This document shows, piece by piece, positions 1 to 42,010 of a stretch of 42,010 nt of DNA (its first letter is position 1; every line of letters begins with the position of its first letter). Origin of the DNA: an uncultured Bacteroidales bacterium (lineage in GTDB: Bacteria; Bacteroidota; Bacteroidia; Bacteroidales; UBA12077). The notes beneath the pieces were generated by a model. The model worked only from the letters and a program-made list of their open reading frames with translations, had not been told where the DNA came from and ran no database searches. The translations under genes and the position numbers were made by a program. The DNA lies in NCBI GenBank assembly GCA_964345495.1, contig CAYFRV010000001.1, forward strand, positions 1 to 42,010, in the 5' to 3' direction.

Positions 1-322
1 AGCTTTTGGCAGAGATTTTTCTAACATTCCGTCTTGCTACTTACTCATTCACATCCGCTGCTGCCACTGTTAACCTTGCGGTTTAATTCGGTAGCCATTC
101 TGTTGTCATTTGGTGGTCATTCTGTTGTCATTCGATAGTCATTCTGTTGTCATTCGATAGTCATTCGGTATATATTCAATTGTTTAGGAGTATATTTTTT
201 TTCAACGACTACTGTTTCTTTGTGCCAATGGCCAATAGCTAACAGCCAAAAGCCAAAAGCTGAACGCTTATTAGCAAAATGATGGCAATTTTCTATTTTA
301 CCTCTACTTCTGAAATTGCCTA
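1..322. repeat. Copy of the dispersed modular MITE-like palindromic intergenic element, cut by the window edge. Its right terminus is CCTCTACTTCTGAAATTGCC (301-320) followed by a TA flank.
   Basis: The terminus plus head (267-320) is homologous, as a reverse complement, to 41901-41954, 16751-16804 and 16965-17018. It contains low-complexity GCCAAT/GCCAAAAGC stretches (227-261). Bases 1-10 (AGCTTTTGGC) are the reverse complement of 252-261. Confidence 0.6.
89..170. repeat. 22-bp tandem direct repeat, about 3.7 units, inside the element.
   Basis: The units are CGGTAGCCATTCTGTTGTCATT (89-110), TGGTGGTCATTCTGTTGTCATT (111-132), CGATAGTCATTCTGTTGTCATT (133-154) and a partial CGATAGTCATTCGGTA (155-170). 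There are no spacers, so this is not a CRISPR array. Confidence 0.85.
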
Positions 323-338
323 TTTATAGAGAAAGAGG

Positions 339-959
339 TTAAAATGGCATGTAAATTATCTTCTTTGTTTTGAAGAATTCTTCTTTAAAAAAGTCGTTTA
401 TGTGGTATATCTGAATTTTATCTTTATATTTTTTTATCTCTTCTTCAAAATCTCCGCCTTTTAGATAAAACACTCCATTTTTCATGGAATTTTTGTTTGT
501 TTCGCTAATGTTATTTTTTACCCAATGGATAAACTTCGGGAATTGAGTAACAGCTCTGCTGGTTATGAAATCGAATTTTTCATTGTAGTTTTCTGCTCTT
601 GCGTGCACCGTTTCAATGTTTGTAAGTTCCATTTCTGCATTGATGGCTTCTATAACCTTCAACTTTTTTTTAATTGAATCTAATAAAACAAAGTGACATT
701 CCGGGTATACTATTGCAAGCGGAATTCCAGGGAAACCACCACCTGTGCCAATGTCCAGAATGTTTGTTCCGGGATTGAAATCAGCTATTTTGCATATAGC
801 CAGAGAGTGAAGGACATGATGGAGATAAAAATTTTGAAAGTCCTTTCGCGAAATGACATTTATTTTCTTATTCCAATGATTGTAAGCATCATAAAGCCCT
901 TTGAATTTCTCAATTTGCTCAGATGTTAAGCCGGGAAAATAGGACAACACTTTATTCAT
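339..959 (-). CDS. rsmG: 16S rRNA (guanine527-N7)-methyltransferase RsmG (GidB).
   Basis: 206 aa. It has the SAM-binding motif LDIGTGGGFPGIPLAI and GidB-like length and layout. Confidence 0.9.
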   Translation of the reverse strand: MNKVLSYFPGLTSEQIEKFKGLYDAYNHWNKKINVISRKDFQNFYLHHVLHSLAICKIADFNPGTNILDIGTGGGFPGIPLAIVYPECHFVLLDSIKKKLKVIEAINAEMELTNIETVHARAENYNEKFDFITSRAVTQFPKFIHWVKNNISETNKNSMKNGVFYLKGGDFEEEIKKYKDKIQIYHINDFFKEEFFKTKKIIYMPF

Positions 960-8436: not shown

Positions 8437-8741
8437 TTTTTTACGTTTTTTATGCTTATAGGTGATTTTACCTGTGTATAAATCCTACATGGGTAATAAT
8501 ACGCATTTTTAATTGTTTTATTTTCAGTGTTTTAGCTAAATTCGTTTTCCGTGTAATTTTAATTTTTTATTTTACTGAAGTGAGTTTTGCTGTTCTACCT
8601 CCTTTTATCTCTGCTATAGGGAGTAATAAAACAATACGTTTCTTTATTAATTAATCGAAAACAGGGATTAGGTAAAAATACTCTTTTTATCATTTAAATA
8701 AGCTCTTATCTTAGTTTTGGTTTTAACCCAAAATTTTGCTT

Positions 8742-9236
8742 ATGGACCGATCAATTTCTTATCTGACTTTTTATATTGATGACAAAGAATTTGCTCTACC
8801 TTCAGAGAAAATTCATTCGATTTTTGATGTCTCCAGTATCAAAGATATAGATTCTGAATTATATTTTATGAAAGGTGTTGCTCTAAAGGAAACCGGAGTA
8901 TTGCCTGTTGTTGATTTAGGTCGTGTATTAGGGGTTTCAGAGAATAGCCCATCGGAATCCTCCTCTGTTATTCTTGCAAGCCTTAATCTTTCCGGGAAGG
9001 TATTTAAGGTTGGACTGGTTGTTGATATGGTTACCTCCGTGTTAAGTATTAATAAGAAGTTAGTTGCCGACGCTGTTCAGAATAATTCTTCGTCTGTTCC
9101 AAAAGAAGTTGAAGCTGTTGTAACAGATAAATGTCAGAAAATTTATATCTTAAAAACTGAAAGTTTGTTCTCGGAAGATGATCTTTTAGACTTATATATT
9201 GAAGTAAAAAGGTTTTTAGGTATAGAATTGGATTAA
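8742..9236 (+). CDS. CheW-like domain protein (orphan).
   Basis: It aligns by eye with CheW: YLTFYIDDKEFALPSEKIHSI, MKGVALKETGVLPVVDLGRVLG, VGLVVDMVTSVLSI and IYILKTESLF. I prefer the ATG at 8742 over the TTG at 8736. Confidence 0.7.
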   Translation: MDRSISYLTFYIDDKEFALPSEKIHSIFDVSSIKDIDSELYFMKGVALKETGVLPVVDLGRVLGVSENSPSESSSVILASLNLSGKVFKVGLVVDMVTSVLSINKKLVADAVQNNSSSVPKEVEAVVTDKCQKIYILKTESLFSEDDLLDLYIEVKRFLGIELD

Positions 9237-9252
9237 TGTTCTGTTTTGTTTT

Positions 9253-9309
9253 GGCACATTCAGTAAAATTTAAAACTTTACTTTTACTTCTGAATTTGCC
9301 TGTTTTTTC
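9253..9309 (+). terminator. Miniature copy of the element termini that forms a hairpin plus T-tract directly after the CheW-like gene.
   Basis: GGCACATTCAGTAAAA (9253-9268) pairs imperfectly with TTTTACTTCTGAATTTGCC (9282-9300). TGTTTTTTC follows. Confidence 0.5.
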
Positions 9310-9477
9310 TATGTTATAAAGCAATTATTATTTCCTGTTATTTAGTTGTCCTGCATTTGCTGTAAACTTCTTTTCAAAAAAAAGAAGAAATTCTTATGAT
9401 TTTGCTAATTTCCTGTTATTATTTTTTAACTTAGTGTATTAACCCTTAAAGGGTAATTTTGGGTTTATTGGTTTATT

Positions 9478-9516
9478 AATATGGGCAGGAAATTTTTCTG
9501 CCCATATTTTAATTTA
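9478..9516 (+). terminator. Intrinsic-terminator-like hairpin in a gene-free region.
   Basis: The stem is ATATGGGCAG (9479-9488)/CTGCCCATAT (9498-9507), 10 bp and perfect, with a 9-nt loop. TTTTAATTT follows. Confidence 0.6.
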
Positions 9517-9723
9517 ATAAGTTAACACCAAATACTTTTCTCCATCTAATTGGTGGTTCTAAGAAAACGCATCATTGGCCTGCCCGCTGCACTTTTTCCG
9601 ATAGCTATCGGAATTTCCCTAAAGGAAGGCTAACCCACTAAAAAACAGTCGATTAGTTTCCAGTAAAATAAAATGTAAGCAGGTTTATTTTCTGTTTAAA
9701 GGGAGTTGCTTAAAGACAGTAAT

Positions 9724-9745
9724 TAGGAAAATTCAAAAGCAGAGG
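9724..9745. repeat. Solo terminus of the element family.
   Basis: TA|GGAAAATTCAAAAGCAGAGG matches the terminus consensus. It lies 30 nt from the yaaA stop codon. Confidence 0.45.
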
Positions 9746-9774
9746 TATATTGAAAAAAAACGAGGTTGTAAAAT

Positions 9775-10539
9775 TTAGCGCGTAAAAATCCATTCATTTT
9801 TTGAAGAGAGTTCATCATTAAAAACATATCCATCTTCTTCAAATGTTTTTAATACTTCCGGGTTGTTGATTTTTTCTTTAATAATGAATCGTGTCATTGC
9901 ACCTCTTGCCTTTTTAGCGTAAACAGCTATGGTCTTGTATTCGTTCTTCTTCTTTTCTTTAAAAACGGGAGTGATGATATCCCCTTTGATTGAACTTGGC
10001 TTAATCGCCTTGAAATATTCCTGAGAAGCCAGATTGATAAGGGTGGAATTTTTTTGATCTTGTAAGGCAGCATTTATATTTTCGTTAATTTTATTTTCCC
10101 AGAATTCATATAAATTGTTACCCCTTTTATTTTTTAAATGTGTGCCCATTTCTAATCTATAGGGTTGTATTAGGTCTAATGGGCGGAGAATGCCATATAA
10201 TCCGGATAGAATTCTTAGATGCTTCTGGGCAAACCCCAGGTCTTTTTCATATAATGATTTGGAATCTAGCCTTTTATAAACATGTCCATTAAACATGAAA
10301 ATTGCTTGTTGCGCATTTTCTTTTGAGACATTTGGTGTCCAGCGCATAAATCTTTCATAGTTCAATTCTGCAATATCCCTGCTTACACTCATAAGCTCTT
10401 CAATATCCTGTGGGCCTAATTGCCTCAGTTCATCGATGAGTACTTTGGCATCATTAAGGAAATCGGGAATTGTATGCTGATTGGTAATTAACCGGGAAGT
10501 TTGTTCAAGTTTTTTTGCAGGTGAAATAATTGTAATCAT
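9775..10539 (-). CDS. yaaA: Peroxide stress protein YaaA (DUF328/UPF0246).
   Basis: 254 aa. It has the characteristic N-terminus MITIISPAKKL and a YaaA-like length. Confidence 0.85.
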   Translation of the reverse strand: MITIISPAKKLEQTSRLITNQHTIPDFLNDAKVLIDELRQLGPQDIEELMSVSRDIAELNYERFMRWTPNVSKENAQQAIFMFNGHVYKRLDSKSLYEKDLGFAQKHLRILSGLYGILRPLDLIQPYRLEMGTHLKNKRGNNLYEFWENKINENINAALQDQKNSTLINLASQEYFKAIKPSSIKGDIITPVFKEKKKNEYKTIAVYAKKARGAMTRFIIKEKINNPEVLKTFEEDGYVFNDELSSKNEWIFTR

Positions 10540-10695
10540 AGCGTATATTTATTAGATATACAATTATGAAAAAGATTTGTTCTAACCTAATTTATTCGAA
10601 AAATAAGTTAAAATTTTGGCCTGTTTTTGTTTAGAACCATTAATCGATTTTTTCTGAGCTTTATTTCTTTTTCATGAAAGGCGCAGCACTTGAGT

Positions 10696-11271: not shown

Positions 11272-11406
11272 AGGATTATTTTAAGTGGTAAAAAACTATT
11301 TTATTTGTTACCCCTAAAAATAATCTGTTTAATTTAGATTTCCAATATTTTCTAAATGAACCTGTTTGAAAAATCTTTGGCTCTGGAAACTCTGGATATT
11401 TATGCA

Positions 11407-11447
11407 CAAACAGGACGCATTTTTTTGATATCGATACGTCCTGTTTG
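11407..11447 (-). terminator. Strong hairpin downstream of the SOD gene.
   Basis: The stem is CAAACAGGACG (11407-11417)/CGTCCTGTTTG (11437-11447), 11 bp and perfect. There is no clear U-tract on the minus strand. Confidence 0.5.
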
Positions 11448-11474
11448 CTGAAATAGAGTCTTGTAAGTGCTATA

Positions 11475-15269: not shown

Positions 15270-16727
15270 ATGTTAAATGAACTGGTAGAGTTAAAAAAGG
15301 GTATAGATCAACTCGATATATCAGAAGACCAGAAAAAGGATTTGCAGGGAAAGCTGTCAAAAGTTACCAAATCATACTCCCTGATGGAATTCAAGCTGGA
15401 CCGCACCATTAAGGATAAGAAAGCTGTTTCTAGTGTTTTGAGTAAGACCATAGAAGAGATTGAGAAATTGTCTATGGTGGTAAAAGAAACCGACAATGCT
15501 GTTGCCGTATTTGATTCCAATGCTGATTTAGAATGGGTAAATGATGGCTTCGTTAAGCTTTTTGGCTATACAATGTCTGAATATATTGAAGTAAATGGCT
15601 CTTCTAAAATCTGGGAGATGAGCTCTAACAATAATATTCGTGACACACTGAAAAATGTGATTAATCAAAAGAAAACTTTGGAATACGAAACCATTAACTA
15701 CTCAAAAGATGGAAGAAAGTTTTGGGTTCATACTACATTAACTCCCATTTTTGATAACAATAATCATCTGAAGCGTATTATCATCATCGATTCGGATATT
15801 ACCAAAACAAAGGAAGCAGAGCATGAGCTTGAGCGACAACGAAATATAGCTATTCAACAGCAGCGGGAGATTATAGATAAAAACCATGAACTAGAACAGC
15901 AAACCGAAGAAATTTTATCTCAAAGAGATCGGATCGAAGATCAAAAGGATTTACTTGAAGTAAAAAATAAGGAGCTCACTGAGAGTATTCAGTATGCTGA
16001 ACATATCCAGTCTGCTATTCTGCCACCATCGGAAATGATAAAAGAGATTTTGCCGGAGTCTTTTATTTTCTTTAAACCTAAAGATTTGTTAAGTGGTGAT
16101 ATTTATTGGATTGAATCATATAATGGATTAAAATATTTTGCAGCTATTGACTGTACAGGCCATGGAATCCCGGGTGCTTTAATCAGTATTTTTGTTTATA
16201 ATCTTCTTAATCAGGCACTTAAAATCCATAAGTTGTCAGAACCCGCAAGTATCATTGAATATGTAAATAATGAAGTTTATCAGGCCTTGACGCGTCATAA
16301 AAAGAAAAAACGAATTGGTTTCGGGATGGATCTGACAATGTGTGCTTATGATCCGGATACCAACCGATTGTATTATTCAGGAGTTTTTAACCCGATGTAT
16401 CTTATCAGAGATGGGGAAATAATACATTGTCCCATGAATGAAGAAGCTCTGGATTATGAGGGAGGGGTTTTCCAGTTTAAATGCAAAAATAATTTTATAG
16501 ATACACAAAAAGGCGATATAATCTATTTGTTTTCTGATGGTTTCCCGGATCAATTTGGTGAGGAAAAAAACAAAAAGTTTAAACGAGCCCCATTCAGAAA
16601 GCTGCTTTTGGATAATCATCAAAAACCGATGGAGGAACAGAAAGCCGTTTTAGAAAAAAGTCTGAATGAATGGAAAGGTTCTTTACCTCAAACCGACGAT
16701 ATCCTTGTGATGGGAGTGCGGTTTTAA
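15270..16727 (+). CDS. PAS domain, coiled coil and SpoIIE/PP2C-family phosphatase.
   Basis: 485 aa. The PAS segment reads VAVFDSNADLEWVNDGFVKLFGY. A Q/E-rich coiled coil follows. The PP2C motifs are SGDIYWIE, IDCTGHGIPGA, LFSDGFPDQFG and DDILVMGVRF. Confidence 0.85.
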   Translation: MLNELVELKKGIDQLDISEDQKKDLQGKLSKVTKSYSLMEFKLDRTIKDKKAVSSVLSKTIEEIEKLSMVVKETDNAVAVFDSNADLEWVNDGFVKLFGYTMSEYIEVNGSSKIWEMSSNNNIRDTLKNVINQKKTLEYETINYSKDGRKFWVHTTLTPIFDNNNHLKRIIIIDSDITKTKEAEHELERQRNIAIQQQREIIDKNHELEQQTEEILSQRDRIEDQKDLLEVKNKELTESIQYAEHIQSAILPPSEMIKEILPESFIFFKPKDLLSGDIYWIESYNGLKYFAAIDCTGHGIPGALISIFVYNLLNQALKIHKLSEPASIIEYVNNEVYQALTRHKKKKRIGFGMDLTMCAYDPDTNRLYYSGVFNPMYLIRDGEIIHCPMNEEALDYEGGVFQFKCKNNFIDTQKGDIIYLFSDGFPDQFGEEKNKKFKRAPFRKLLLDNHQKPMEEQKAVLEKSLNEWKGSLPQTDDILVMGVRF

Positions 16728-16748
16728 TCAGGCACTTTCAGGAATATT

Positions 16749-17020
16749 TAGACAAATTCAGAAGTAGAGGAAAAAATTATAATTAGCATCAGTTTTTTAA
16801 TTAGCAGTAAGCTATTGGCTATTAGCAAAAAAACTAGTAGTCGACTAAACAAGAAAACTTCTAAACAATTAAAGTTTTTTTCTTCTGAATGCGTCTATTT
16901 AAAATTATTAATTCATCCTTTATATGCCGTATATCGCTGCTTAGTGCCTACTGCCTACTGCTGACTCATTAGAAAACTGATGGCAATTTTCAAATTTACC
17001 GCTGCATCTGAATCTGCCTA
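16749..17020. repeat. Complete composite copy of the MITE-like palindromic element between convergent genes.
   Basis: The left end is TA|GACAAATTCAGAAGTAGAGG (16749-16770). There is an internal terminus CTTCTGAATGCGTC|TA (16882-16897). The right end is CCGCTGCATCTGAATCTGCC|TA (16999-17020). The 35-nt heads are inverted, as are the low-complexity arms. Confidence 0.7.
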
Positions 17021-17983
17021 ATTATACGTTCCAGGTATCAGATAATTTTTTACGTAATCATTTATCCCCTCTTCTAGCGTATGGAAGGATTTACTATAAC
17101 CCGTACTTCTTAATTTTTTGATATCAGCTTCTGTAAAATATTGATATTTATCGCGAATATCTTCGGGAGTATCAATGTATTCAATCTTTCCGGAAATCCC
17201 TATTGCATTAAAGGTGTTATTAACAAGATCATTAAATGTCCGTGCTTTTCCCTGTCCTATATTGAATAATCCGTTTTTTGGCTTTTTTTCCATAAAGAAA
17301 TACAGCACATCAGTTACATCTTTCACATAGATGAAATCTCTTAGCTGCTCACCGTCTTTGTAGTCATTCCGGTGCGACCTGAAGAGTTTCATTTTACCTG
17401 TTTCCTTAATTTGATTATAAGCATGAAAGATGACCGAAGCCATGCGGCCTTTATGATATTCATTCGGTCCATACACATTGAAGAACTTTACTCCAGCCCA
17501 ATAATCCGGAGCAGAATTTTGTTCCAGTACCCATTTGTCAAAATCATTTTTGGATTCGCCATAAGCGTTTAAAGGTTGAAGTTTAAACGGCAGGTCGTGA
17601 TCATCCTTATATCCGTACTCTCCGCCGCCATAAGTTGCTCCGGAAGATGCATATATTAGGGGAATGTTATTCTCTGCACAGAAACTCCAAATCTTTTTGG
17701 AATAGTTTAGATTAAGGTGATTTAGTATCTCTTTGTCAAATTCTGCAGTATCCGTTCGGGCTCCCAAATGAAAAATAAAGTCAATTTTTTGGTTATCTCT
17801 CGGCATCCAGTGTAGAAAATCTTCCCGGTCGATTTTCTGATTAAATGCTTTTCCGTTTAGATTCTTATTTTTGTCATCTCTCGAAAAATTATCTACTATA
17901 ATAATATCGTGATAACCTTCATCATTTAGTTTTTTGACGAGGTTACTGCCAATAAATCCTGCTGCCCCTGTTACAATAATCAT
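17018..17983 (-). CDS. hldD: ADP-L-glycero-D-manno-heptose 6-epimerase.
   Basis: 321 aa. It has the Rossmann motif VTGAAGFIGSN, the catalytic YGESK and overall HldD/RfaD-like features. Confidence 0.85.
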   Translation of the reverse strand: MIIVTGAAGFIGSNLVKKLNDEGYHDIIIVDNFSRDDKNKNLNGKAFNQKIDREDFLHWMPRDNQKIDFIFHLGARTDTAEFDKEILNHLNLNYSKKIWSFCAENNIPLIYASSGATYGGGEYGYKDDHDLPFKLQPLNAYGESKNDFDKWVLEQNSAPDYWAGVKFFNVYGPNEYHKGRMASVIFHAYNQIKETGKMKLFRSHRNDYKDGEQLRDFIYVKDVTDVLYFFMEKKPKNGLFNIGQGKARTFNDLVNNTFNAIGISGKIEYIDTPEDIRDKYQYFTEADIKKLRSTGYSKSFHTLEEGINDYVKNYLIPGTYN

Positions 17984-19273: not shown

Positions 19274-20164
19274 ATGCCTATGAAAGCTTATGTATTCCCC
19301 GGCCAGGGTGCTCAGTACGTTGGTATGGGAAAAGACTTGTACGAAAAGACACAAATAGGAAAAGAATTATTTGAAAAAGCAAACGATATTTTAGGTTTTA
19401 GCATTACAGAAGTAATGTTTAATGGAACTGATGAAGATTTAAAGCAAACTAACGTAACACAACCGGCCATTTTTCTTCATTCAGTGATTCTGGCAAAAAC
19501 AATTCCTGATTTTAAACCCGATATGGTGGCCGGCCATTCACTCGGCGAATTTTCTGCACTGGTTGCCAACGGAGCTTTGGCATTTGAAGATGCATTAAAA
19601 TTGGTTGCAAAACGTGCAGATGCCATGCAAAAAGCTTGTGAAGTTGAGCCTTCAACTATGGCAGCTATAATGGGGTTAGAGGACGAGACAGTTGAAGAAG
19701 TTTGTAATCAGATTGAGGATGTTGTAGTTCCGGCAAATTATAATAGTCCGGGGCAAGTTGTAATCTCTGGCTCAACAGCTGGTATAGATACGGCTACTGA
19801 AATATTGAAGGAAAAAGGGGCAAAAAGAGCAGTAAAACTTAAAGTTGGGGGTGCTTTCCATTCTCCTTTAATGGAACCGGCAAAACAGGAGCTTGAAAAA
19901 GCCATTAACGAAACCACTTTTTCCAATCCGATTTGCCCGGTATATCAGAATGCTACAGCAACTCCTGCTGATAACCCGGAAACCATAAAAGAAAATTTAA
20001 TAAAACAGCTTACTTCACCTGTGAAATGGACTCAATCAGTTGAAAATATGATTCAGGACGGAGCACAGTCCTTCACAGAAGTAGGCCCGGGGAAAGTATT
20101 GCAGGGGCTTATTAAAAAAGTTGACCGTAAAATGCCTGCTGAAAGTGCTGAAGTCCCTGAATAG
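19274..20164 (+). CDS. fabD: Malonyl-CoA:ACP transacylase.
   Basis: 296 aa. Motifs seen are FPGQGAQ, the active site GHSLGEFSAL and GAFHSPLM. An alternative start is possible at 19280. Confidence 0.92.
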   Translation: MPMKAYVFPGQGAQYVGMGKDLYEKTQIGKELFEKANDILGFSITEVMFNGTDEDLKQTNVTQPAIFLHSVILAKTIPDFKPDMVAGHSLGEFSALVANGALAFEDALKLVAKRADAMQKACEVEPSTMAAIMGLEDETVEEVCNQIEDVVVPANYNSPGQVVISGSTAGIDTATEILKEKGAKRAVKLKVGGAFHSPLMEPAKQELEKAINETTFSNPICPVYQNATATPADNPETIKENLIKQLTSPVKWTQSVENMIQDGAQSFTEVGPGKVLQGLIKKVDRKMPAESAEVPE

Positions 20165-20410
20165 AAATTCAGAAACAGAAGTGAAGATAAAAATGTTCAT
20201 TAGTTGACTAACAAGTAGAAAGTATTTAGTAAATAGTAGAATGGCATAAAACGCCTTTTATTAGTAGTTTAAATAAGTGGCGTTAAGAGAGATGAATTTG
20301 ACAACCTTTAAACTCTTGCCAAATCGCTGCTTTCTACTGACTACTTTCTACTTTTCTTGCTGCCAAAAAATGCTGCTTTTTTATATATTTTCTGATTCTG
20401 AATGTGCCTA
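20162..20410. repeat. Copy of the MITE-like element, a roughly 245-bp imperfect palindrome between convergent genes.
   Basis: The termini are TA|GAAATTCAGAAACAGAAGTGAAG (20162-20186) and TTCTGATTCTGAATGTGCC|TA (20390-20410). The arms are 20213-20245 and 20318-20355 (AGTAGAAAGTA-type). The central stem is AACGCC (20250-20255)/GGCGTT (20279-20284). Confidence 0.65.
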
Positions 20411-20412
20411 AC

Positions 20413-20826
20413 CTAATCGCCCTTAAACTTTAAAGTTATATTTTGTTCAATGTCCGGATGAAGGCTTCTCGGCACAGGACTGGCATTTACCAGGTTTTTC
20501 AGTATATCTTTCTGTTCATCTGTCAAATCATGATTTGTAAAGTCATATTCGATCTGAACTTCTTTGATTCTCCGCGGATCATTACGCATAATCTTTTTTG
20601 CCGTTGCCGTTGCATTGTCAATATTAAAACCATTTTCCTTCGCTTTTATACCCATAATGGTAAAAATGCAACTGCACAGTGCGCTGGATACCATGTCTGT
20701 CGGTGAAAAGTATTCGCCTTTTCCTTTGTTGTCAACAGGAGCATCAGTAGTGATCTTTTTTCCTGATCGTTCGTGTGTAATTTCTGTACGAAGCTCTCCT
20801 TTGTATTGTATGTGATAAGTTTCCAT
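20413..20826 (-). CDS. OsmC/Ohr family protein.
   Basis: 137 aa. The size and pattern are OsmC-like (SPTDMVSSALCSC). Confidence 0.7.
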   Translation of the reverse strand: METYHIQYKGELRTEITHERSGKKITTDAPVDNKGKGEYFSPTDMVSSALCSCIFTIMGIKAKENGFNIDNATATAKKIMRNDPRRIKEVQIEYDFTNHDLTDEQKDILKNLVNASPVPRSLHPDIEQNITLKFKGD

Positions 20827-41400: not shown

Positions 41401-41901
41401 ATGTATAGACTTGGCTTTATTTTTGGCATCTTATTTCTTATTGGTTGTTCTGTTTCTGAACCCAAAATGAAGGAATTCCAACCTTTAAGCAGCGATATTT
41501 TCTTAAATGAACCTTTTAGTTTTAAACTTGATATTGAAACTTTTGAATCTGAAATGGGCGAAGATTACCGAAAACGGACTTTTATAAGAACCTTGAGCTC
41601 AGACACTACCAGAAAAGATACGATATATAAGTTTGTAAGGAAGAAAAACAGTTTTATTTTTTATCGAACAACAAAAGGCAAATCTTCTTTTCTTTCCGCA
41701 AGAATACGGTATAAAAAGACACTCTTTTCGGGTAATTTTTATCCGGGAATTTCCAGGCAGGAATTAAACCAGGTGTTTACAGATATGGATTTTGATCTTG
41801 ACACATGTAAATTTGATAATGGGAAAAGGCAGGCTGTTTTTATTTTCAACGATAACGACAAATTGCAGGAAGTTCAACTGAATAATTATTACAAACGTTA
41901 G
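41401..41901 (+). CDS. Hypothetical lipoprotein.
   Basis: 166 aa. It has a lipobox, FLIGC. I recognised no family. Confidence 0.5.
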   Translation: MYRLGFIFGILFLIGCSVSEPKMKEFQPLSSDIFLNEPFSFKLDIETFESEMGEDYRKRTFIRTLSSDTTRKDTIYKFVRKKNSFIFYRTTKGKSSFLSARIRYKKTLFSGNFYPGISRQELNQVFTDMDFDLDTCKFDNGKRQAVFIFNDNDKLQEVQLNNYYKR

Positions 41902-42010
41902 GCGTTTTCAGAAGTAGAGGTAACGATTATAATTAACATCAATTTTCTAATAAGTTGGCAGTCGGCAGTGGCAGAAAGCAGCGGAAACATACGGCATATA
42001 ATGGCTGAGT
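41899..42010. repeat. Copy of the MITE-like element, cut by the window edge.
   Basis: The order is TA|GGCGTTTTCAGAAGTAGAGG (41899-41920), the head TAACGATTATAATTAACATCAATTTTCTAATAAG, the low-complexity TTGGCAGTCGGCAGTGGCAGAAAGCAGCGG and then ACGGCATATAA. It is homologous to the reverse complement of 16920-17018. Confidence 0.65.

Follow-up and report, generated by a model that had tools for sequence, protein, structure and literature searches.

A probable MITE family with 6-bp target-site duplications, located mostly between convergent genes, in an uncultured Bacteroidales bacterium

REPs are palindromes of 20–40 nt that are moved by RAYT and leave no target duplication, HUH transposition making none, and possible roles in transcription termination or mRNA stability are considered for the REP/BIME, REPIN and QMITE2 sequences. 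The target duplication of the Correia elements consists of TA only. QMITE2 of Coxiella is placed mostly in 3' UTRs, and some of the BOX, RUP and SPRITE repeats are described as terminator-like (PMC10969869). The described system that is closest to the elements reported here, in both architecture and phylum, is BrickBuilt (MITEPgRS) of Porphyromonas gingivalis, which is strictly intergenic, is built of a 'leader' and a 'tail' part and varies in the copy number of its array; the same species carries several MITE types with similar termini (PMC4596501).

In the present work, we have analysed a stretch of 42,010 nt of DNA (referred to below as the window) that makes up an entire NCBI MAG contig, has a GC content of 35.8% and a housekeeping gene content, and in which a scan for tRNA and tmRNA genes found none. 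Homologues of its HldD protein group the window with uncultured Bacteroidota of conserved synteny, and the strains of its own species come from microbial-mat metagenomes. The genes that adjoin the repeats were identified by Pfam, and the epimerase is taken as HldD because its database homologues bear the name ADP-glyceromanno-heptose 6-epimerase:

339–959, minus strand: GidB-family methyltransferase
8736–9236, plus strand: CheW
9775–10539, minus strand: YaaA
15270–16727, plus strand: PAS-SpoIIE protein
17018–17983, minus strand: NAD-dependent epimerase, hldD
19274–20164, plus strand: acyltransferase (FabD)
20413–20826, minus strand: OsmC

A repeat family in the window and in related genomes

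A repeat search of the window recovers both inverted and direct relationships among the copies, and an nhmmer profile of the terminus and the adjoining head (~60 nt) has seven matches in it, with E values of 1e-9 to 1e-15; a weak match (E 0.07) is present at 9723–9747 on the plus strand. The seven matches are:

266–323, minus strand
9250–9303, minus strand
16748–16805, plus strand
16964–17022, minus strand
20162–20216, plus strand
20361–20412, minus strand
41897–41955, plus strand

The 20-nt terminus GGCAnATTCAGAAGTAGAGG, with up to 4 mismatches, is found 91 times in 662 kb of the window and related loci and 2 times in the shuffled sequence. A strict pattern scan of one genome per species located 28 loci in Bacteroidota bacterium Y22_60dBSe2.bin.25 (JBNJFT01) and single or double loci in each of several other Bacteroidota or Bacteroidales MAGs, the leftover matches being isolated and without fit to the module profile. 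A metagenome scan with the 20-nt terminus retrieved 83 stretches, nearly all of them from two JGI metagenomes, which hold 244 termini in 413 kb by a relaxed pattern. These results confirm that the repeat family is real and goes beyond chance. The preliminary description of this DNA, made by inspection, had proposed a dispersed, modular, MITE-like family, and this proposal is upheld by the profile matches, by the excess of termini over shuffled sequence and by the further copies in related genomes and metagenomes; the sequence features that it listed all exist where it had placed them. Rfam has no match at the gathering threshold over the window, none at E<=1 over 16650–17100 and nothing relevant over the CheW–YaaA spacer, and a full-text literature search with the terminus sequence returned only unrelated primers. 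As judged from Rfam and the literature text, the family is previously uncatalogued.

The elements end in GGCAnATTCAGAAGTAGAGG ... CCTCTACTTCTGAATnTGCC, i.e., in 20-nt terminal inverted repeats. The majority of the unit elements lack symmetry, with one long arm (terminus, a head of ~35 nt and a subfamily-specific array of 7-nt repeats) and with a short terminus as the other end. Alignment of many copies indicates that what the subfamilies have in common is limited to the ~20-nt termini plus, at one end, the ~35-nt head followed by 7-nt arrays, the interiors being unconserved between them. Sizes range from 48 to 460 nt, and no internal ORF of function is present. The following subfamilies are distinguished:

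Type A, ~285 nt: long arm with GCAGTAN heptads and then ATATGCAGCACATAATGGATA, opposite a short terminus ...CTTACTTCTGAATGTGCC
Type B/C, ~270–460 nt: two arms that pair as a long hairpin
Type D, ~265–285 nt: begins GGCAATTTCAGAAGTACCGGC
Deletion minis, 48–145 nt

The long, AT-rich hairpins of B/C-type units fold far better than shuffled sequences (z -4.6 and -5.2), whereas A-type units, with a terminal stem of 14 bp only, fold no better than shuffles (z -1.6). Elements are often nested in other elements or abut them, and abutting elements have one TA in common.

Five family loci lie in the 42-kb window. Apart from the junction of PAS-SpoIIE and hldD, its copies are:

1–320, minus strand: right part of a large element cut by the contig start, with terminus and head at 266–320, GCCAAAA-type heptads at 225–260 and an 11/22-nt array at 79–177; TATTTA follows at 321–326; located downstream of the GidB-family methyltransferase gene (339–959, minus strand)
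9253–9300: miniature element of 48 nt consisting of two termini only, downstream of the CheW gene, with a perfect 6-bp duplication, TGTTTT, at 9247–9252 and 9301–9306
9726–9774, plus strand: solo degenerate left end GGAAAATTCAAAAGCAGAGG, preceded by TAATTA (9720–9725); the weakest member
20165–20408, plus strand: B/C-type element between FabD and OsmC, a long imperfect hairpin with a fold z of -4.6
41901–42010, plus strand: left end (long arm) of an A-type element that is cut by the contig end

The miniature element is a hairpin followed by TGTTTTTTC, which contains a T run. In the solo copy, the left end is fused to a piece resembling an A-type interior that extends to the YaaA stop codon. 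The element at 20165–20408 has a right flank of TAACCT (20409–20414), and its B...C architecture recurs, with a perfect duplication, in the related locus L022. Both termini that had been reported for this copy are present, but the anatomy given for the left one does not hold, its first four bases being gone, and the FabD stop codon TAG abuts AAATTCAG.

Target-site duplication and a nested composite

Related loci in which hldD and the PAS-SpoIIE gene lie next to each other without a spacer provide empty sites for the family. In L085 and in L086–88 (80–81% HldD identity), these two genes share a 4-nt overlap within one TAATTA or TAATTG, the sites reading ..CGCTTC TAATTA TATTTC.. in L085 and ..TTT TAATTG TAATTT.. 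in L086. The filled sites read ..GGTTT TAATTA (GGCAG...CTGCC) TAATTA TAC.. in L081 and ..GGTTT TAATCA (GGCAC...CTGCC) TAATTA TAC.. in the window. Empty sites in relatives had been suggested earlier as a test of the TA duplication; the relatives possess a single hexamer where the filled genomes have two, and the comparison delimits the element proper as GGCA...TGCC and shows that the target hexamer is duplicated. This comparison and that for the inner element described below are both made between species, not within a population.

The same duplication length emerges from pairs of plus and minus termini lying 100–900 nt apart, for which the n bases that end the left flank were compared with the n bases that begin the right flank. 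For n of 2 to 9, the numbers of exact flank identities are 19, 1, 0, 0, 7, 1, 0 and 0 among 55 pairs from genome-derived loci, and 28, 1, 1, 0, 8, 0, 0 and 0 among 66 non-redundant pairs from independent metagenome loci; in each set, 0 of 5000 permuted pairings attained the observed counts of 6/6 or at least 5/6 identities. The perfect hexamers include TATTTG, TAGTTG, TAAATA, TAAGTA, TAAGAA, CAAATA, TCCTTA, TAGTTA, TATATA, TAATTC and TGTTTT, and duplications that do not start with TA are CAAATA, TCCTTA, GAATTA, ACAGCA and TGTTTT. In both sets, the duplications of many pairs are decayed or absent. The duplication is copy-specific, direct and located outside the inverted repeat. The termini were described earlier as mostly flanked by TA, and this stands: in a set of 66 non-redundant termini, 79% have A at position -1 and 71% have T at position -2, with conservation also at positions -5 and -6. 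The target consensus is approximately TAWWTA, and hence TA flanks most termini and conservation extends to -5 and -6.

The ~270-bp "palindrome" between PAS-SpoIIE and hldD, which the preliminary description had presented as the best complete copy of a single palindromic element, consists of two asymmetric elements in opposite orientation, one of which is nested in the other:

16725–16730: left copy of the target duplication of the outer element, TAATCA, which differs from TAATTA at one base
16731–17018, minus strand: outer element, 137 nt without the nested insert; an internally deleted A-type MITE
16731–16744: short terminus of the outer element, GGCACTTTCAGGAA
16745–16750: left copy of the duplication of the nested element, TATTTA, which is outer-element sequence
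16751–16895, plus strand: nested inner element, 145 nt, with ends GACAAATTCAGAAGTAGAGG ... TTCTTCTGAATGCGTC and its long arm on the left
16896–16901: right copy of the duplication of the nested element, TATTTA
17019–17024: right copy of the target duplication of the outer element, TAATTA

In the outer element, the long arm (terminus, head and CTGCCTA heptads) runs leftward from 17018, and this outer element is orthologous to the element that adjoins the hldD stop codon in L077, L081 and L084. The inner element reads GACAAATTCAG...CTGAATGCGTC and has a perfect TATTTA/TATTTA repeat on its two sides. Its removal together with one TATTTA leaves 137 nt that are collinear with the uninterrupted ortholog in L081 (TAATTAAACACTTGCAGGAATATCTAAAATCATT in the window against TAATCAGGCACTTTCAGGAATATTTAAAATTATT in L081). 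At the point of insertion, L081 reads ..CAGGAATATCTAAAATCATT.., with a single TATCTA, and the window reads ..CAGGAA TATTTA (145 nt) TATTTA AAATTATT... L081, a sister species, is therefore the empty site for the inner element. In L081 itself, a D-type element lies within the flanking TAATTA, which results in three copies of TAATTA. The head-to-head symmetry of the window copy is only apparent, since the long arm of the inner element is on the left and that of the outer element is on the right. The TATTTA repeat and the L081 empty site thus replace the single palindrome by a nested composite; the extra internal terminus noted at 16882–16895 is indeed present, and the outer left end, formerly set at 16751, has to be moved to 16731, where GGCACTTTCAGGAA begins.

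The two flanking genes terminate within this structure. The first three bases of TAATCA (16725–16730) are the stop codon TAA of PAS-SpoIIE, and the hldD stop codon TAG (17018–17020, minus strand) combines the final C of the element with the TA of the duplication. The ORF upstream of 41901 ends in the same manner, its stop codon TAG (41899–41901) being formed by the TA of the flank ACGTTA and the first G of the element.

Location at gene ends, transposition model and alternative explanations

The location of the copies at gene 3' ends, mostly between convergent genes, was recognized from the window alone, and the enlarged sample bears it out. All copies in the window are downstream of a gene, and they are present in 3 of its 4 convergent spacers and at both contig ends. 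Of 57 termini with a neighbouring outside ORF, 51 face the 3' end of a gene that reads into the element, and for 13 of these 51 the stop codon is either inside the duplication or composed of the duplication TA and the first G of the element (viz. the stop codons at 17018–20 for hldD and at 41899–41901). The occupied spacers (n=81) comprise 66 convergent, 12 tandem and 3 divergent ones. In the genome-derived loci, 27 convergent, 2 tandem and 2 divergent spacers are occupied versus 37, 134 and 32 available; in the metagenome loci, the corresponding numbers are 39, 10 and 1 occupied versus 49, 175 and 44 available (Fisher p 1e-27). Availability of the target motif was considered as a cause of this bias and rejected, the density of TAWWTA being near equal across tandem, divergent and convergent spacers (5.8, 7.8 and 6.2 per kb, respectively); coding DNA holds 1433 such sites (2.3 per kb), a total far above that of the spacers. 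Because target availability fails to explain the bias, either selection or an unrecognised targeting cue must be assumed.

The convergent bias is most economically explained by selection, which would remove insertions from promoters, operon spacers and coding DNA, and some of the surviving copies may have come to act secondarily as transcription barriers. A bias that exceeds survivorship, with a transposase guided to the junctions of transcription units or with elements kept by the host as insulators, we regard as rather unlikely. Cues for such guidance could include terminator hairpins, converging polymerases or local supercoiling; if the elements were insulators, a mobile, self-renewing 'junction module' would have replaced the ordinary inter-terminator spacers in this lineage, and the spacer swap of L077 described below, between strains that are 99.8% identical, would be a cassette-like exchange of such modules.

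The family shows terminal inverted repeats, a target duplication, empty and filled sites, small size, dispersed copies and no transposase gene, and it is very probably a family of non-autonomous MITEs that make a 6-bp target duplication. In the model that we propose, a transposase supplied in trans, probably of the DDE type, would make staggered cuts 6 bp apart in the target, with a preference for TAWWTA, and each insertion would therefore be surrounded by a 6-bp direct repeat. New copies would often land in or beside old ones, giving rise to composite clusters. At the junction studied here, hldD and PAS-SpoIIE would once have overlapped, with the stop codons of both genes in one TAATTA; the outer element, which is old, would have entered this hexamer, and the 145-nt element would have nested into the outer one later. 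Insertion at a stop codon would be harmless since the initial G of the element and the usual final TA of the target rebuild TAG or TAA for both genes.

The window was reported to hold no transposase, and none is present in its 42 kb. The ~1.07 Mb of related loci, which are short-read contigs around copies, where IS copies break assemblies, yielded neither an autonomous element nor a transposase that carries these termini, and no pair of inverted termini separated by more than ~600 nt had a matching duplication. The ORFs interior of solo termini (viz. a histidine kinase, an endonuclease-I-like protein, a lipoprotein and a UPF0182-like protein) look cellular, as judged by eye. A generic scan for ORFs between inverted repeats of at least 14 nt revealed nothing convincing, and viral contigs had no match to the terminus.

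The element adjoining the hldD stop codon occupies the same place in four species (hldD ~86% identical) with wholly different interiors, consistent with an old insertion that later underwent nesting and deletion, and full-length copies are 74–87.5% identical to one another. Four strains of the window's own species (99.3–99.9% identity, collinear, without indels) displayed no insertion polymorphism at the two sites covered. The FabD–OsmC spacer of L077 and that of L078/L080 (532 vs 252 nt) differ entirely from stop codon to stop codon, between regions that are 99.7–99.9% identical on both sides; this difference is a replacement of the whole spacer and no clean insertion. Many contigs, including both ends of the window, terminate inside copies. 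As short-read assemblies would break at young copies that are nearly identical, old copies are over-represented in the sample.

Four other readings of the family have been weighed against the 6-bp MITE. The preliminary description had found the TA flanks to fit an element of the IS630/Tc1-mariner type, which inserts at TA and duplicates TA only, and this accords with the TA that directly flanks 36 of 66 termini, with the single TA common to abutting elements and with the TA duplications that ITm elements generally make (PMC10045372). The exact direct repeats, however, peak at 6 nt in two independent sets, several duplications fail to begin or to end with TA (CAAATA, TCCTTA, GAATTA/TAATTC, TGTTTT, TATTTG and TAGTTG), flank positions -5 and -6 are conserved as well, and the empty site has one hexamer where filled sites have two. 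That the hexamers are part of the element is excluded by their being non-palindromic and copy-specific. The empty and filled sites and both pair statistics hence speak for a 6-bp duplication; the 2-bp TA duplication is rejected, and an IS630/mariner origin is very unlikely. Movement by RAYT (HUH, IS200/IS605-like) on single-stranded hairpins, in the manner of REPs and REPINs, would make GTAG the recognition motif; GTAG is indeed part of the terminus (GAAGTAGAGG) and of many heptads (GCAGTAG, GTAGATA), and the extragenic location and the inverted arrangement fit. This reading is rejected because of the 6-bp duplication and is highly improbable: the units are 250–460 nt long with 20-nt terminal inverted repeats, not palindromes of 20–40 nt, and an unsystematic look at the loci examined saw no RAYT gene flanked by copies.

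The location at gene 3' ends would also suit a family of structured non-coding RNA genes or integron attC-like sites at cassette ends, and two termini in the window read GTTAGGC or GCCTAAC, similar to the attC core sites RYYYAAC and GTTRRRY. Such a reading has next to no likelihood, considering that Rfam has no match at gathering or at E<=1, that the core GTT/AAC is unconserved across 66 termini (flank positions -3 and -4), that the flanking genes are convergent housekeeping genes without a co-oriented cassette array, and that the 6-bp duplications are copy-specific. A further possibility is that these are primarily host-functional structures (bidirectional terminators, insulators or REP/BIME-like sites) whose mobility is incidental or ancient. 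The extreme convergent bias beyond the frequency of the target motif, the retention of the hldD-stop element in four species (~86% gene identity) while its interior turns over, the stable folds of the B/C units (z -4.6 and -5.2) and the miniature element at 9253–9300, a hairpin followed by TGTTTTTTC, all point in this direction. Against it, A-type units have a fold z of -1.6 and a terminal stem of 14 bp only, a simple scan predicted no terminator-like sites inside elements, L077, L082 and L084 retain an ordinary terminator hairpin of FabD next to the elements, relatives live with overlapping hldD and PAS-SpoIIE genes and no spacer, and the interiors are unconserved between subfamilies. We therefore consider a primary host function unlikely and retain the interpretation as non-autonomous MITEs with a 6-bp target duplication.

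Significance and comparison with known systems

This family explains assembly breaks downstream of genes in this microbial-mat Bacteroidota lineage, and it is behind the wildly differing intergenic spacers between close species. For annotation, it is of importance that repeat ends supply several stop codons and that spurious ORFs are called in the heptad arrays, and the family should be masked. The hldD junction offers a clean natural example of a transposon that entered the shared stop codons of overlapping convergent genes, both of which were rebuilt via the 6-bp duplication. As its copies occupy the majority of convergent junctions in the DNA sampled, the family provides a good system for studying selection versus targeting, and its defined terminus and duplication length are a handle for finding the mobilising transposase.

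MITEs as a kind of element are already known; what is new is this family, with its 6-bp duplication, its nested architecture and its restriction to convergent junctions. In common with the REP/BIME and REPIN sequences of Proteobacteria and with QMITE2, its members are extragenic, hairpin-prone and enriched at gene 3' ends; they differ from REPs in having 20-nt terminal inverted repeats and 6-bp duplications. They are similar to the Correia elements of Neisseria and to IS630/ITm-type MITEs in their length (~100–300 nt), inverted ends, abundance and TA flanks, and Correia and ITm MITEs can likewise supply regulatory signals or stop codons. ITm MITEs, however, duplicate TA only (PMC10045372), whereas the present family duplicates 6 bp. 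Most members of the IS481 family make 6-bp duplications, as is the case here, but IS481 ends are TGT...ACA (PMC10045372) versus GGCA...TGCC in the present family, and no IS481-like transposase is linked to it; an origin as IS481-derived MITEs was rejected, the duplication length fitting and the termini not.

The pneumococcal BOX, RUP and SPRITE repeats resemble the family in being small, non-coding and intergenic, and in being bunched and inserting mutually into one another to form composites (PMC10969869). They belong to another phylum and have other sequences, and BOX is modular without the combined signature of terminal inverted repeats and duplication. BrickBuilt, like the present family, is a MITE-like element of the Bacteroidales whose terminal inverted repeats are conserved and whose interior includes an array of tandem repeats (PMC4596501). 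It differs in its terminal inverted repeat, GAGACCTTTGCA, which matches IS5-family ISPg elements and is unrelated in sequence to the present termini; in its internal repeat of 23 or 41 nt, compared with 7 nt here; and in having a known parent IS family. A 6-bp duplication and a bias toward convergent genes, which characterize the present family, are not reported for BrickBuilt in the part of its description considered here (PMC4596501).

Convergent gene ends and intergenic repeats in related genomes

The convergent genes hldD and PAS-SpoIIE overlap by 4 nt (CTAA or TTAA) in relatives that lack the element, the central TA of the overlap being common to both stop codons, and there is no space for any terminator between them. 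The strain of locus L077 is 99.7–99.9% identical over kilobases to those of L078 and L080, yet their FabD-OsmC spacers are wholly different. The swapped segment is bounded precisely by the two stop codons, and the OsmC stop itself differs between the strains (TAG/TAA). The alternative spacer lacks any terminus of the family and carries a hairpin (30-bp stem) composed of GAGTTGATT-type repeats. Short-repeat arrays of the AACTCAATTAACTCAG / GAGTTGATT type also adjoin many elements in the related MAG (Y22_60dBSe2.bin.25), and they appear to form another class of low-complexity repeats in these intergenic regions.

Features of gene ends and intergenic regions in loci (L-numbers) of related genomes
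L085 6963-6966: 4-nt hldD/PAS-SpoIIE overlap
L086 4215-4218: 4-nt hldD/PAS-SpoIIE overlap
L077 7288-7819: FabD-OsmC spacer, 532 nt
L078 3406-3657: FabD-OsmC spacer, 252 nt, also with short-repeat arrays
L025 5930-5975: short-repeat array
L006 985-1015: short-repeat array
L040 3605-3625: short-repeat array

Contig ends and gene calls within elements

Contig ends frequently lie inside elements in this lineage (viz. window positions 1 and 42010, the ends of L082, L083, and L084, and the contigs of L174 and L177, which stop at the equivalents of window 16978 and 16953, respectively), and because of this the family is a main cause of assembly fragmentation in the lineage. At window 79-177, inside the element that the left contig end cuts, about 4 copies of ATTCGATAGTCATTCTGTTGTC form a tandem array with an 11/22-nt period, longer than that of the heptads of other copies; a related short run, TTCGATAGTCATTCGGTTGTTCTGTTGTT, is present in L081. 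Gene callers also predict spurious ORFs within these heptad arrays, one example being a 120-aa ORF at L077 7320-7682.

A second repeat around a nitroreductase gene

A second repeat of about 150 nt, unrelated to the MITE family and with the ends GAATTATTCAT...ATGAATAATT, was observed in L077. One copy lies on each side of the nitroreductase gene of this sister species, both inserted after TTCTAACCT. The repeat is absent from the window, where the orthologous spacers are 10540-10695 and 11272-11474.

Second-repeat copies (with flanks)
L077 16693-16764: first copy
L077 17565-17636: second copy

A conserved stretch in the CheW-YaaA spacer

Within the CheW-YaaA spacer, a stretch of about 120 nt (window 9385-9510) shares about 90% identity, as judged by eye, with the orthologous spacer of another species, with which hldD identity is only 86%, whereas the remainder of the spacer is unalignable between the two species. 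No Rfam family matches this stretch. It contains a TAATTTTG box and a pair of hairpins whose stems are conserved and whose loops vary, its end (9478-9508) resembles a terminator, and a small RNA gene may be encoded here.
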